DNA of 39,746 nucleotides from Bacteroidota bacterium (GCA_025363505.1 JANYDV010000019.1:1-39746); one strand, 5' to 3'. Numbered from the stretch's first letter, positions 35,069 through 39,746 are shown. A program made the numbers and translations. The notes: generated from the letters alone by a model not told the origin.

Positions 35069-36430
35069 GTGCTTATTCGCTCCATCTCGGGCCTTCGCGG
35101 GCTCACTGATTCTCAAACCGGCTTGACCGACGATGTTATTATTGCTTATGCATCATCATTTGCAACAATAATCGGCAACTCGGGCATTGTTGCACTTGGC
35201 TTTGATGGCAGAGTCGGAGGCAAACGTATCTTCGATCTTGTCGCAGCCACCCTCTGCGCAGCAGGTTGCGATGTTCTCTCATTAGGCATGGTCCCGACTC
35301 CGACGGTAATGTTTGCTGTAGAGAAGAATAAGAATGTGCTGGGCGGTATAGTCGTCACGGCAAGCCATAACCCACAGCAATGGAATGGAATGAAGTTTAT
35401 TAATTTCAATGGTCTTTTTCTTGATGCAGATGAAAATGCCGACTTATGGAAGTTCGTTGACACCGGTTCATGGAAACTTCAGACTGCTCAAGGAAAAATC
35501 ATTGACGGAAATGAAACGATCGAATCGCACATAGCATCGGTTCTGGCAATTCCATTTCTCGCCCTTGAGGATATCAAGAAAAAGAAATTTCGCGTCGTTC
35601 TTGATACCGTCAATGCAAGTGGTTCGTACATCCAACAAGAATTGCTGAAGCGTCTTGGTGTTGCTGAAGTGATCGGTCTTGCTACCGATGGTTCAGGGAT
35701 ATTCCCTCATTACCCCGAACCGGTACCAGCAAATCTTACTTCGCTTTGTGAAGCTGTGGTGTCAAATAATGCCGATCTCGGTATTGCTATTGATCCCGAT
35801 GCTGACCGGTGCGTGTTGATCACCAATGCCGGCGAGCCGTTCATCGAAGAAAATACTATTGTTCTTGCTGCCGAAGAAGTACTTTTTAATATGGATCGTG
35901 GTCAGAACGTTGTGGTGAATCTCTCTACCACCAGAGCCATCGACGATATTGCCGAGCAATACGGAGCGACAGTACATCGTACTGCGGTCGGCGAGATTAA
36001 CGTTGCCAAGAAAATGATTGATACTTCTGCGGTCATTGGCGGCGAAGGTTCGGGCGGAGTAATTTTTCCGGCTGTCCATATCGGTCGAGATTCATTGGTC
36101 GCTGTCGCGTTGGTGCTCAGTAACCTTGCCCGTAGCGGAATGACTGCCGCCGAAAAGAAACTGTCGCTACCTCAATACGAGATAGTCAAAAACAAAATCG
36201 AACTCTCAAGCAAAGAACAAGCAAGTGAGATGATAGCCGGGATCAAAACAAAGCTTGTATCGTCGGCTCTATCATATAACGAAGAAGATGGCTTGCGTCT
36301 GGACTTCGAGAAGAGCTGGCTTCACGTCCGTTCATCAAATACCGAGCCGATCATCCGTCTCATAGCCGAAGCCCCCACCAAAACCGAAGCCGAAGCACTC
36401 ATCGCCAAAGCGACAAAATCTAAGAATTAG
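35069..36430 (+). CDS. glmM: Phosphoglucosamine mutase (alpha-D-phosphohexomutase family)
   Basis: LIRSISGLRG N-terminus, TASHNP (phosphoserine), DPDADR, VGE.NV, GGEGSGG, DGLR, VRSSNTEPIIR. PMM/PGM specificity is not excluded. Confidence 0.82.
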   Translation: MLIRSISGLRGLTDSQTGLTDDVIIAYASSFATIIGNSGIVALGFDGRVGGKRIFDLVAATLCAAGCDVLSLGMVPTPTVMFAVEKNKNVLGGIVVTASHNPQQWNGMKFINFNGLFLDADENADLWKFVDTGSWKLQTAQGKIIDGNETIESHIASVLAIPFLALEDIKKKKFRVVLDTVNASGSYIQQELLKRLGVAEVIGLATDGSGIFPHYPEPVPANLTSLCEAVVSNNADLGIAIDPDADRCVLITNAGEPFIEENTIVLAAEEVLFNMDRGQNVVVNLSTTRAIDDIAEQYGATVHRTAVGEINVAKKMIDTSAVIGGEGSGGVIFPAVHIGRDSLVAVALVLSNLARSGMTAAEKKLSLPQYEIVKNKIELSSKEQASEMIAGIKTKLVSSALSYNEEDGLRLDFEKSWLHVRSSNTEPIIRLIAEAPTKTEAEALIAKATKSKN

Positions 36431-36459
36431 CTAAAAACGTGAGTTCCAAATGTTTCAAA

Positions 36460-36596
36460 AGCTCCGAAGGAGCGAATTACTCGCAGCCCAGGGTGGAGCG
36501 AAGCGGAACCCTGGGAAAGGGTATGAATAACATTTATAGCCCTGAAAGGGCGAAGTGACCTTCGTGGCTTTTTATCCCATGCCTCGGCAGGGCGAA
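36460..36596. repeat. REP-like cluster of GC-rich palindromes
   Basis: AGCTCC-GAA-GGAGCGAA (36460-36476), CCCAGGG...CCCTGGG (36487-36515), AGCCCT-GAA-AGGGCGAA (36538-36554), and degenerate GCCTCGGCAGGGCGAA (36581-36596). Confidence 0.7.
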
Positions 36597-36599
36597 AGC

Positions 36600-36616
36600 T
36601 TGGCACGCTATTTGTA
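36600..36616 (+). promoter_or_regulatory. Sigma54 (RpoN)-like -24/-12 promoter
   Basis: TTGGCACGCTATTTGTA versus consensus YTGGCACG-N4-TTGCW. The -24 box and spacing are perfect, and -12 has GT for GC. Confidence 0.55.
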
Positions 36617-36790
36617 CAATGTAATGGTAGTGTAAATTATTTAAGACACGACTATTATGCATGCCCTCAATTAAATGACCAATCGCTGCTTTCCTTGGAG
36701 CCAATAGTTGGCTTATTAGGAGCACGGCTATACTGAGAAAGTTTTCTTTCTTGGAATAGTGAAGTTCATTTAAAATATGAGGGATAATGT

Positions 36791-37147
36791 ATGAAAAGGA
36801 TTAAGGATTCGGCTCAGTTGTCACTATTTGATATTGAGCCAGCCAACGAAATCAAGATAGATCGCAAACGTGTACGCAAGGGAGATGCTTCAAGCTATCC
36901 CGCCCAATTAGACCTCTTCCATCATGTTGATGGATTCAAAAACCCCGACGGAGAGCCCGATCGGGGTTCTTCTTTTTATTCAAAATATTTAAAATCCTCG
37001 ACAAGCATTCGATATATCTCTTCCTTCACTTTTTTTGTCCTTGTGCTGATTTGTGCAAATAAATCAAGAAGGTCAGCCGCGTTTTCCATCTCAGCATATT
37101 TTTTGATTTGTATTAGACCAGAGTTAGGGGTTAGGAATGGAGCATAA
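36791..37147 (+). CDS. Small protein with two beta-clamp-binding motifs (QLSLF, QLDLF)
   Basis: GAGGGA upstream of ATG 36791. The first ~60 codons lie in otherwise unoccupied DNA, and the last 172 nt overlap the convergent gene in antisense. Confidence 0.65.
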   Translation: MKRIKDSAQLSLFDIEPANEIKIDRKRVRKGDASSYPAQLDLFHHVDGFKNPDGEPDRGSSFYSKYLKSSTSIRYISSFTFFVLVLICANKSRRSAAFSISAYFLICIRPELGVRNGA

Positions 37148-39746
37148 AGGAAATATTTGAAATATGGCTCATCTTTTAAACCCTCGTATTTCAGTACTTG
37201 CCCCTTACAATATACTTGATTCCAAACAGAATATAATTCTTTTATCTTGTTAACCAGTTGAATTGCTATTACTGAACTTGGAGAAATAGAAGGTTCTAAT
37301 GTCGTTGACCAAAATGAATCAGGATTATTTGGTGACAAGGGATTGTCTACAAAAACTTCGGGTGCTTCAGGTATCGGATTCCCAGCTTCGAATTTAGTCA
37401 CGATACAATTATTATTTGAAAAGCCAAAAGCAAAACAGAGTGAATAAAAATAATTTTCTTTGTCCACCTGTATTTGCGGAGCCCATACATCCATTTGATT
37501 CGCCCAAACGGGATATACGCCATTAATTGCTTTTGTTATTGCAAACCAAGTAAAAGTAGTTTGAGCGGAGTTTATATCAAATGCACAATAACTTCTATTG
37601 TCAGAAGGTCCCGATTGCATTCTTGTTCTATTAACGCCTTTAAAGTCTTCATCAAGTCTAAACCAAACTCTATTTGGCTGGTTAGTTATTCGTCCTTGAG
37701 TATCCGCCTTTATTCTTACAGGTGTAGTATCATCCATAAACCCAAGGTAGATAGAGTTTGCAATACCGTAGGTTTTCTTATTTCCGCGTCGTTCGTCATT
37801 AAGCGATAATCCTCCATATACACTTCGTGACTCTATTTCTTTTTTTGTTGGGTCTCTCTTAAAATCATACATTGATTGATTTGCCCACTCCTTAATGGAA
37901 ATTCGCCTCGCTGAAAGATTGACCAACTTTGCTTGTTTACAAATATCAACCAGTTGAGTATTGATGATTTTTGCTTCGGCATTCCAATTTAGAACCAAGT
38001 CATTTTTTTCTAACGGAGTCAGATCTAATACTTTAACTTCATTTTTGTTGCCGTTTTCATTTCGTACATAACTCCAGATCGTAAAAGATATTGGGAATCT
38101 ACCATCAATCTTAAAAAACTCATTCCCAGTAATTAAAAAACCTTTTTCAAATTTAAAATACTTATCAAATTCTTCCCTAAAAGCTCTATACGTGGGTCTC
38201 GGAATCAGCCAAGATGTAGGTGTGAAAATCATGATCAAAGGTGTCTCCTTCTTGTCATTCCGCAGTTCTTGATCTATTTGTATATCCATTAAATCCATCT
38301 GCTCCACAGGACGATCACCCATTTGGAGGCGAGCAATGTTAACGATTTGTGCAAGAAAAGCAAGATACCTTTCTTTTCCGGCGTCATCTCCTGTTAGTTG
38401 TAAAATAGACGGGTCTATTTGATACACAGCATTTGCAGCTATGCGAACATTTTCATTTTCATCTGTATTCTTATAAGGCGGGTTAAGAAGAAATGCAATA
38501 GGTTTATCAAGTTTTAAATTTTTTTCCCGAAGACCATTTAACAGTACTTGCAGGTAACTCTCGGCAGACTTATCCAGAAAGTTGAGCCCTTCTTTTTCAC
38601 TGGTTTTTGGTATAATTGTAAATCCCGCTTGTATTTCTTGGGGATCGAGTTTCATACGTTGTTCGATCGTTCTTAAGAGATCGGGCTGTAGTTCGGAAAC
38701 AATTTTATGTTTTAGATGTCCGCGCCAACTTGTCACTAAATTGCCTGACCCACCGGCAGGATCGAGAACAATATATTTATCGCTTAGTTTTTTTTCATAG
38801 TATTGATGAACGAACCACAAAGCAAATTTACTAAGATTATCATCAGTAAAGAAGATACCGTGTTGAATTGCGTACTGCTCATCTAATCTTGAGATTACTT
38901 CATCAAATCTACTAAAGTAATAATCCGCGGTTAATCCACTACCCGAATTTACGAATACATAATGATTTTGAACAAACTTCTTAAAAGTCTCATGAAAGCG
39001 CGGAGAAATTTTTAATGTTTCGCTACTTCTTTTCTTTCGTAGATCTATTAATTGCAGATCATCTGAATTGGCAACTTCCACAACTTCAGAATTAACATCC
39101 CAATAGCCAACCATTGCATAAAAGCAGTGAATTGCAGAGAGCGCATTATTTTGCGGGAAAAATCTTTCAAGTTGTTGAATTTTAGTTATGAAGTTTGATG
39201 GTCTAATTTGTAAACGTCCAGCCTCAAGGTTCTTTAAGTAATCTGAAAATTGGGACAATAATATTTTTGGGTCAGTAACAAACAATTGATTTTCAAATTC
39301 ATGGGGAAGTATTTTGAAGGCAGCGCTTTCCAAAATTTCATTTTTTTGTCCTTGATTTGTTTTTTTTGCATTTATTCTGCCTACTTCATTTGGTGCTTTT
39401 TGATTATCTGAGCTATCGGCATACTCGTTTACAAAGTTTGGTAAATCTTTTATTCTCCAAAGCCCTATAAACTTCTGCGAAATTACACAAATTGAAGTAA
39501 ATGTTAAACCTCGTGTATGATAATGCAATCCTTGATACAATCCAGCATAAATATCTTTTGCATCAGTCTTCAACTCAATAATTAATTTTCCTTCTACATA
39601 ACCATCTGCATCTAATGCCTCTGAGGCTCGAGTATATTTTCCGGGAAATATTTCTCTAAAATAGCTATGGACAAAATCGTCACTGGAGTTTTCAGTACCT
39701 GCCGAAAGCAAATACTTTTTCAATTGTTCTATTGTCTTTGGGTTCA
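36976..39746 (-). CDS. Single-chain restriction endonuclease-amino-methyltransferase (Type IIG-like); start probably just off the window edge
   Basis: N-terminal nuclease motifs ADG...IIELK and QGLHY (QxxxY). MTase motifs HGIFFT (X), VLDPAGGSGNL (I) and NPPY (IV, 38473-38484) in gamma order, followed by a long C-terminal TRD-like region. The frame is open upstream of TTG 39723 to the edge (nTG AAC CCA AAG ACA ATA GAA CAA TTG), suggesting a start at 39747 or beyond. Confidence 0.8.
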   Translation of the reverse strand, partial: NPKTIEQLKKYLLSAGTENSSDDFVHSYFREIFPGKYTRASEALDADGYVEGKLIIELKTDAKDIYAGLYQGLHYHTRGLTFTSICVISQKFIGLWRIKDLPNFVNEYADSSDNQKAPNEVGRINAKKTNQGQKNEILESAAFKILPHEFENQLFVTDPKILLSQFSDYLKNLEAGRLQIRPSNFITKIQQLERFFPQNNALSAIHCFYAMVGYWDVNSEVVEVANSDDLQLIDLRKKRSSETLKISPRFHETFKKFVQNHYVFVNSGSGLTADYYFSRFDEVISRLDEQYAIQHGIFFTDDNLSKFALWFVHQYYEKKLSDKYIVLDPAGGSGNLVTSWRGHLKHKIVSELQPDLLRTIEQRMKLDPQEIQAGFTIIPKTSEKEGLNFLDKSAESYLQVLLNGLREKNLKLDKPIAFLLNPPYKNTDENENVRIAANAVYQIDPSILQLTGDDAGKERYLAFLAQIVNIARLQMGDRPVEQMDLMDIQIDQELRNDKKETPLIMIFTPTSWLIPRPTYRAFREEFDKYFKFEKGFLITGNEFFKIDGRFPISFTIWSYVRNENGNKNEVKVLDLTPLEKNDLVLNWNAEAKIINTQLVDICKQAKLVNLSARRISIKEWANQSMYDFKRDPTKKEIESRSVYGGLSLNDERRGNKKTYGIANSIYLGFMDDTTPVRIKADTQGRITNQPNRVWFRLDEDFKGVNRTRMQSGPSDNRSYCAFDINSAQTTFTWFAITKAINGVYPVWANQMDVWAPQIQVDKENYFYSLCFAFGFSNNNCIVTKFEAGNPIPEAPEVFVDNPLSPNNPDSFWSTTLEPSISPSSVIAIQLVNKIKELYSVWNQVYCKGQVLKYEGLKDEPYFKYFLYAPFLTPNSGLIQIKKYAEMENAADLLDLFAQISTRTKKVKEEIYRMLVEDFKYFE

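Follow-up and report, generated by a model that had tools for sequence, protein, structure and literature searches.

A small bacterial protein with two consensus clamp-binding motifs that probably occupies both client clefts of a single sliding clamp

Results

A small reading frame between glmM and a convergent gene

The window, i.e. the whole stretch of 39,746 nucleotides analysed here, is an entire contig (C131) of a Bacteroidota genome (G000; 2.57 Mb in 330 contigs, 93.6% complete). It carries glmM (35069-36430); beyond it come a stretch with a hairpin repeat, the small gene that is the subject of this work, and a gene for a protein of 915 residues, which extends to the contig end. The features in and around the small gene are the following, with the basis of each assignment in brackets:

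36719-36790, plus strand: conserved stretch 5' of the gene, presumed to hold a promoter and a short A/T-rich leader (similarity to the nucleotide-level relatives X5 record 10 and X5 record 15)
36791-36919, plus strand: conserved coding core, codons 1-43, with start codon, motif 1, basic linker and motif 2 (sole open frame; homologue alignment)
36815-36829, plus strand: clamp-binding motif 1, QLSLF, residues 9-13 (sequence, alignment, model)
36863-36880, plus strand: basic patch RKRVRK in the linker, residues 25-30 (sequence, alignment)
36881-36904, plus strand: conserved lead-in GDASSYPA before motif 2, residues 31-38 (alignment, model)
36905-36919, plus strand: clamp-binding motif 2, QLDLF, residues 39-43 (sequence, alignment, model)
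36920-37147, plus strand: unconserved tail of the frame, 75 codons in the window copy, overlapping the end of the neighbouring gene on the opposite strand (variable tail lengths)
36938-36976, no strand assigned: bidirectional terminator hairpin, preceded by an A run and followed by a T run, common to the small gene and the convergent gene (terminator scan, fold, repeats)
36976-39723, minus strand: convergent neighbour of 915 residues, unnamed family, nuclease- and N6-adenine methyltransferase-like (Atlas leads); given as context only

The ATG at 36791 opens a plus-strand frame that translates as MKRIKDSA-QLSLF-...-RKRVRK-...-YPA-QLDLF-HH. A preliminary description of this DNA had listed the first 45 residues, which match the translation exactly, and its account of the motifs was borne out: QLSLF and QLDLF are exact and lie in the same frame, their starts are 30 residues apart, an alanine precedes each, and they are encoded by different codons (CAG TTG TCA CTA TTT for motif 1, CAA TTA GAC CTC TTC for motif 2). 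Across 36791-36919, every other frame of both strands stays open, from stop to stop, for 30 codons at most. The gene end, which had been placed at 36976, had to be moved: no stop codon is found at this position, which is the last base of the convergent gene, and the small frame runs to a stop at 37145-37147, giving 118 residues in the window copy. A terminator-like hairpin thus lies inside the small frame, upstream of its stop. As 36491-37087 was recovered with 0 differences in a contig from a separate run of the same study (X3 record 7), the absence of a stop before the terminator is not an assembly error.

Terminator, RNA fold and expression signals

The arms of the terminator hairpin (36938-36948 and 36961-36971) are 91% complementary; the terminator scan called a stem at 36950-36972, followed by TTTTTATTCA, and the hairpin is also present in the minimum-energy fold. 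It is G+C-rich and, when read in the small frame, yields KNPDGEPDRGSSFY, which is nearly identical in the homologous protein P0002 described below. Since this part of the tail is simply the hairpin read in frame, it is probably conserved at the DNA level. Folded as RNA, the unit is modestly more stable than its shuffled counterparts (z = -2.21, with 3 of 200 shuffles as stable), and part of this stability is due to the terminator hairpin. The only internal hairpin of note, at about 36811-36840, is broken up in X5 record 15, which has insertions at 36838-36839, and in P0002 its 3' arm encodes different residues. An Rfam search over the unit gave no match at E ≤ 1.

A sigma-70 scan of the plus strand upstream of the small gene called no promoter, although the promoter type of the organism itself may differ. 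Shine-Dalgarno sites were found at 142 of 1360 gene starts, compared to 7.3% of random 17-mers; as the genome hardly uses such sites, the GAGGGA 5' of the ATG carries little weight. Two 14-nt direct repeats (36765-36778 and 36975-36988, 86% identity) were considered as flanks of the unit and set aside as probable chance matches, because they are A/T-rich, occur in two copies only, and the similarity to the relatives extends past them.

A very small protein family with conserved motifs and spacing

An exhaustive HMMER search of 1,835,955,588 representative proteins (E ≤ 1e-3) returned five proteins including the query itself, of which three are true homologues: P0002 (66 residues, E = 1.2e-14), P0004 (60 residues, E = 7.3e-8) and P0005 (85 residues, E = 6.5e-4). 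The remaining match, the 988-residue repeat protein P0003, was discarded as a low-complexity artefact. A profile search of a 5.8-billion-cluster collection recovered the same four family proteins, from one contig each, those of P0002, P0004 and P0005 measuring 7,982, 16,941 and 3,485 nt. It should be noted that the three homologues were drawn from protein databases, which biases them towards open frames.

The homologues, at 53-66% identity, retain the motifs, as a check proposed in the preliminary description had called for. Each motif is exact in three of the four family proteins, P0002 and P0004 carrying both exactly and P0005 the variants QLFLF and QLDLP, and the linker between the motifs comprises 25 residues in one pair of proteins and 26 in the remaining pair. 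Invariant in all four are M1, D6, Q9, L10, L12, F13, P17, R27, R29, D32-Y36 and Q39-L42. By manual count on the alignment, six lysines or arginines precede GDASSY in each of the four, although at differing positions, and all insertions and deletions among the family proteins in this alignment comprise whole codons. Total lengths (60, 66, 85 and 118 residues) differ via the tails; that of P0002 is in the same frame as in the window copy, with the stop three codons past the ...GSSFY common to both.

That the segment might be the N-terminal remnant of a longer known enzyme, a possibility raised at the outset, was not supported: neither the word-seeded search for longer proteins nor the exhaustive HMMER search yielded a longer relative, no long protein contains the segment, and the homologues have just 60-85 residues. 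Word-seeded protein searches at near and longer lengths returned the query alone, and a 62-residue query against 60 relatives gave a best E of 0.039, with no credible match. Outside the window genome, a profile of the four proteins found none of 34 genomes of the order and none of 400 of the class to contain a match; an alignment-based search of genome, metagenome and viral contigs confirmed no locus, and the best ESM Atlas score for the peptide, 0.77, is at noise level. Judging by these searches, the family is very small and patchily distributed, comprising four predicted proteins and two nucleotide-level relatives.

The protein was also right to be called a member of no described family, as far as Pfam, NCBIfam, PHROGs and PADLOC are concerned. 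At E ≤ 10, no Pfam family was matched by the peptide or its three homologues, PADLOC yielded no family for the small protein, and PHROGs gave just weak matches to three different families (E = 0.057, 0.029 and 0.61). A phage or plasmid origin was considered and rejected: when 50,697 phage records and 72,556 plasmid records were searched with tblastn, the lowest E was 2, and the best phage match, Basilisk gp15, is devoid of the motifs.

Nucleotide-level relatives delimit the conserved unit

Contigs from a second study (activated sludge) were compared with the window over 36300-37300. The closer relative, X5 record 10 (a 7,613-nt contig, ~90% nucleotide identity), aligns to 36412-36530 and 36589-37270; the second of these segments, 682 nt in length, shows 71 differences and one gap. 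It retains the intergenic DNA, the small frame with its hairpin and approximately the last 100 codons of the convergent gene. Among the differences listed for codons 1-43, two are synonymous (L12, V28) and two are replacements (D6N, S7P), which fall outside both motifs. A 1-nt deletion at 36920 shifts its frame directly after motif 2; the shifted frame corresponds in the window to one that stops at 36990-36992.

The more distant relative, X5 record 15 (a 1,244-nt contig, ~80% nucleotide identity), matches only 36719-36919, with 35 differences and 10 gap letters. The matched span starts 72 nt 5' of the start codon and ends on the final base of motif 2. Insertions at 36838-36858 amount to a net gain of 6 nt, so that the frame between the motifs is kept.

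Because the tails vary and the relatives lose either frame or similarity after motif 2, we take the upstream stretch together with codons 1-43 as the conserved unit; by this comparison, the sequence past codon 43 is the terminator and whatever the frame happens to read. In view of the in-frame insertions and deletions, the basic charge kept without fixed positions, the shared start codon and the exact motifs, we favour a translated product.

Genomic context

In the closest genome available for comparison, G002 (locus L025), glmM (81% nucleotide identity) is followed by a 291-residue frame, which reads like undecaprenyl diphosphate synthase (uppS), and then by another, which reads like an outer-membrane protein. 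As G002 thus has other genes 3' of glmM, the small gene lies in accessory DNA, the far end of this insertion being beyond the contig.

The 915-residue protein encoded by the convergent gene has no sequence match in Pfam, NCBIfam, PHROGs or the PDB, and a weak PADLOC match only (mad2, E = 0.0027). Its nearest named Atlas clusters are N6_Mtase/Eco57I/MmeI, with scores of 0.89-0.96, which serve as leads only. The protein contains DPAGGSG and NPPY, which we take to be methyltransferase-like motifs, and near its N-terminus a D...E-x-K pattern that is presumably nuclease-like. Relatives at 53-57% identity occur in two metagenome-assembled genomes. An obligatory pairing of the small gene with this neighbour was rejected as a rule, because the loci of these two relatives (L023 and L024; 6.9 and 8.7 kb) contain no QLxLF frame and the similarity of X5 record 15 ends at motif 2. 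No antitoxin-like partner or conserved neighbour was found beside the small frame in the window or in the nucleotide-level relatives; the only nearby small frame, on the minus strand (36534-36725), is disrupted in X5 record 10, where 58 nt are replaced by 15 nt.

The stretch 3' of glmM contains a dispersed hairpin repeat (36456-36559), short copies of which occur at several places in genomes of the same genus. Part of it (36460-36515, minus strand) gave a sub-threshold match to Acido-Lenti-1, with 29 bits compared to a gathering score of 37. The segment 36485-36517 is covered by many metagenome contigs, at depths of up to ~105-180, and assemblies break there.

Rarity of the motif pair

The whole 2.57-Mb genome, translated in six frames (5,129,390 residues), contains QL[SD]LF seven times. 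Two of these seven are in the small frame, and the remaining five sit in stop-to-stop frames of 19-64 residues. None of the 2113 frames of at least 150 residues in the whole window genome contains an exact QL[SD]LF; QLxLF was found seven times in such frames, with I, K, T, M or P as the middle residue, and QAGIF, QVSLF and QAGVF are candidate client motifs near C-termini. As the long frames hold no exact consensus, the clamp clients of the host itself appear to use weaker, non-consensus variants of the motif.

On the genome counts, the expected frequency of two motifs lying no more than 45 residues apart is about 3 in 10,000 per genome, and by the same arithmetic about one such chance pair could arise across ~250,000 windows, so that the motif count alone is not decisive. 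What settles the non-chance nature of the pair, on the sequence evidence, is its conservation in the homologues. A wider class of tandem-motif microproteins was sought with a back-translated pattern of two QLxLF-like words 45-120 nt apart in 401 genomes of the phylum, with a reversed control, and was rejected, since the pattern matched 120 of the 401 genomes, approximately the rate of the control. Among the matches listed and 30 translated loci, the window alone has two strict motifs in one open frame. The same pattern search came upon a 405-codon frame on the minus strand of locus L041 (G614:C1), which starts M-QLNLF-D and has QFELF 31 residues on.

Docking model with DnaN

The dnaN gene of the window genome is split over two contig ends (C36:2608-3121 and C97:1-564). 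The pieces were left unjoined, and the intact 371-residue DnaN of G002 was used as a stand-in; it is 96% identical to the C-terminal piece and, by visual reading, has two mismatches to the N-terminal piece. Two copies of this DnaN and one of the peptide were modelled with ESMFold2, using small alignments (three further DnaN relatives and the peptide family).

The preliminary description had proposed modelling with the DnaN dimer, on the idea that the protein could occupy both pockets at once. The placement held: the two motifs were modelled in the two clefts with scores of 0.69, 0.68 and 0.64 in the individual runs (median 0.68), compared to 0.01 for the best control. In the calibration, which is only roughly valid for small custom alignments and a three-chain job, 2 of 110 mismatched pairs attained the mark applied, compared to 58 of 80 solved complexes. 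The runs have at least 74% of contacts in common, with a partner pLDDT of at least 51. Peptide residues 6 and 8-13 contact residues 173-178, 242-247, 277-280, 321, 345-347 and 363-370 of DnaN copy 1, and peptide residues 33-34, 36 and 38-43 contact the same residues on copy 2. One peptide is thus predicted, in a confident model, to span both clefts of the DnaN dimer. The linker and its basic patch are not confidently placed; a pLDDT of 51-54 for the peptide in the complex model and the absence of a domain match are consistent with disorder. Clamp-peptide complexes have already been solved structurally and the model may remember them. The result is therefore to be read as likeness to known motifs and not as a demonstration of binding.

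Discussion

Relation to known clamp-binding proteins

The consensus of the clamp-binding pentapeptide is QL[SD]LF (PMC12867686, PMC11139829), and by consensus and conservation the small protein would belong with the clamp clients that carry it, a functional class rather than a homologous family. In PMC11139829, QLDLF is the strongest pentapeptide clamp binder reported, QLDLF-based peptides are studied as clamp inhibitors, and the client cleft is a validated antibacterial target. Single-motif clients include Pol III alpha with an internal motif, Pol IV, Pol V, Hda and RK2 TrfA, the latter with QLSLF at residues 134-138 (PMC11139829, PMC8034659 for the clients; PMC8034659 for the TrfA position). 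As described there, they present the same pentapeptide in a flexible segment, which docks between domains II and III of DnaN; in these clients, however, the motif tethers an enzyme or initiator, whereas the small protein is essentially two exact motifs alone.

The closest published principle is MuC of phage Mu, of the Mor/C late-transcription activators, a small protein with two near-consensus motifs that binds DnaN through both; its overproduction is lethal because the clamp is tied up, and either motif is needed (PMC12867686). Given MuC, a two-motif clamp protein is not without precedent. MuC has about 140 residues, carries its motifs on either side of a folded DNA-binding domain and activates transcription by way of the clamp (PMC12867686). 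The small protein, in contrast, has no domain, exact-consensus motifs just 25 residues apart and no similarity to named families: a Mor/C DNA-binding domain, of the ~130-140-residue type, is absent, with no Pfam family at E ≤ 10 and a conserved core of 43 residues.

SocB of Caulobacter and RipA of S. pneumoniae are small toxins that arrest replication at the client cleft of DnaN, which marks cleft blocking as a biologically used strategy (PMC12795458). Both belong to toxin-antitoxin modules under ClpX/ClpXP control, whereas the small frame has no conserved partner gene. No similarity to either emerged from the exhaustive HMMER search, which returned only the family of 60-118 residues and one junk match. 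Gp168 of phage Twort is likewise a small clamp inhibitor from a mobile element; it forms a folded dimer, which obstructs the DNA channel of the clamp and makes no use of a cleft-binding motif (PMC8565349), whereas the small protein is predicted to use the two clefts instead. Word searches of open-access full texts yielded no domain-less tandem-motif clamp protein.

A proposed domain-less ligand of both clamp clefts

The best-supported explanation of the sequence data sees in 36791-36919 the conserved core of a gene for a stand-alone microprotein, representing a rare new family. Its product is best read as two consensus clamp pentapeptides joined by a basic, presumably disordered linker of 25-26 residues, without a folded domain, and this small protein probably engages the two client clefts of a single clamp dimer. 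One peptide would bind one DnaN dimer via both motifs, one in each hydrophobic client cleft, and avidity would hold the clefts against the polymerases, the clamp loader and other clients. Since the clients of the host appear to be non-consensus, the peptide would therefore compete as a clamp blocker or sequestering agent. Once expressed, it would slow or stop replication; from there, the roles named in the preliminary description (brake, dormancy, abortive infection, tether) may be inferred for the small protein. That it is a new domain-less bivalent ligand of the clamp clefts, most likely a competitor or competitive blocker, is a reading to which we give slightly less than an even chance.

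Several points stand against this reading. With no in-frame stop before the terminator, a terminated transcript of the window copy would be a non-stop message, and its product may be unstable or absent. The family is tiny, and P0005 is changed in each motif. The docking result, obtained with a stand-in DnaN, may reflect the solved clamp-peptide complexes. Finally, the missing antitoxin-like partner or conserved neighbour sits awkwardly with a strong replication poison.

Alternative explanations

A real clamp-binding microprotein could instead serve as an adaptor or regulator, for example by holding clamps on DNA via the basic patch, by altering loading or unloading, or by tuning client access. 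The evidence from motifs, conservation and docking applies to it just as to a blocker. The six basic residues are kept in four of four proteins and make no contacts in the model, an antitoxin-like gene is missing beside the frame, and MuC is a case of a two-motif protein that uses the clamp productively (PMC12867686). We nevertheless consider this unlikely, as no third interaction surface or domain for recruitment could be assigned (0 families) and, with both motifs in both clefts of one ring, no cleft would be left for a client.

An untranslated unit, i.e. a small RNA or a promoter-terminator cassette in which the frame is open by accident and the motif pair is functionless, would account for a short unit that ends in a strong terminator, for the varying position of the stop relative to this terminator (with none before it in the window copy) and for a fold energy somewhat below that of shuffled sequences; the homologues from protein databases are, moreover, biased to open frames. 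It is distinctly unlikely, given the failure of Rfam to match the unit and the fate of the internal hairpin, which is interrupted in X5 record 15 while the frame survives by virtue of its +6 nt and whose 3' arm encodes different residues in P0002. The common start codon and the basic charge kept without fixed positions also speak for coding, and at 56-63% overall identity, ten exact motif residues are unexpected under drift.

Alternatively, the family could be real and the window copy decaying or silent, its stop-less message being subject to trans-translation and its product tagged for degradation. This would fit a frame that continues for 75 codons beyond motif 2, through the terminator, without an assembly error as the cause, when P0002 stops three codons after the shared ...GSSFY and X5 record 10 shifts at 36920 into the frame that stops, in window coordinates, at 36990-36992. 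Yet the core is intact with both motifs exact, and tail length varies throughout the family anyway. Termination is rarely complete, and any message that extends past the hairpin would include the stop at 37145-37147. We regard decay of the window copy as very unlikely.

A chance co-occurrence of the motifs in a spurious open frame, for which the yield of about one such pair in a very large scan and the lack of a relative among 60 relatives, 34 order genomes and 400 class genomes could be cited, is largely refuted by homologues that retain both motifs, the spacing and the lead-in at 53-66% identity, and by two nucleotide-level relatives from another study that retain the core.

Significance

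The blocker reading extends to a more tentative one, namely that the protein is the first natural, genetically encoded 'clamp staple': a domain-less peptide of ~43 residues that pairs two optimal motifs with a tuned linker of 25-26 residues and would fill both clefts with high avidity and act as a switchable replication-arrest factor of an accessory island. The window copy of such a staple may be restrained by its stop-less message, via trans-translation. Natural clamp-targeting proteins known so far are folded inhibitors (Gp168), toxins of toxin-antitoxin modules (SocB, RipA), or a regulator with a domain between its motifs (MuC). A natural peptide consisting of the motifs only, with conserved spacing, would reveal the route by which evolution arrived at bivalent clamp capture, and this spacing would supply a ready linker length for inhibitor design; if true, the clamp staple would offer a template from nature for antibacterial peptides that block the clamp bivalently. 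With such a peptide, the accessory islands of environmental bacteria would also gain a new type of small replication modulator.
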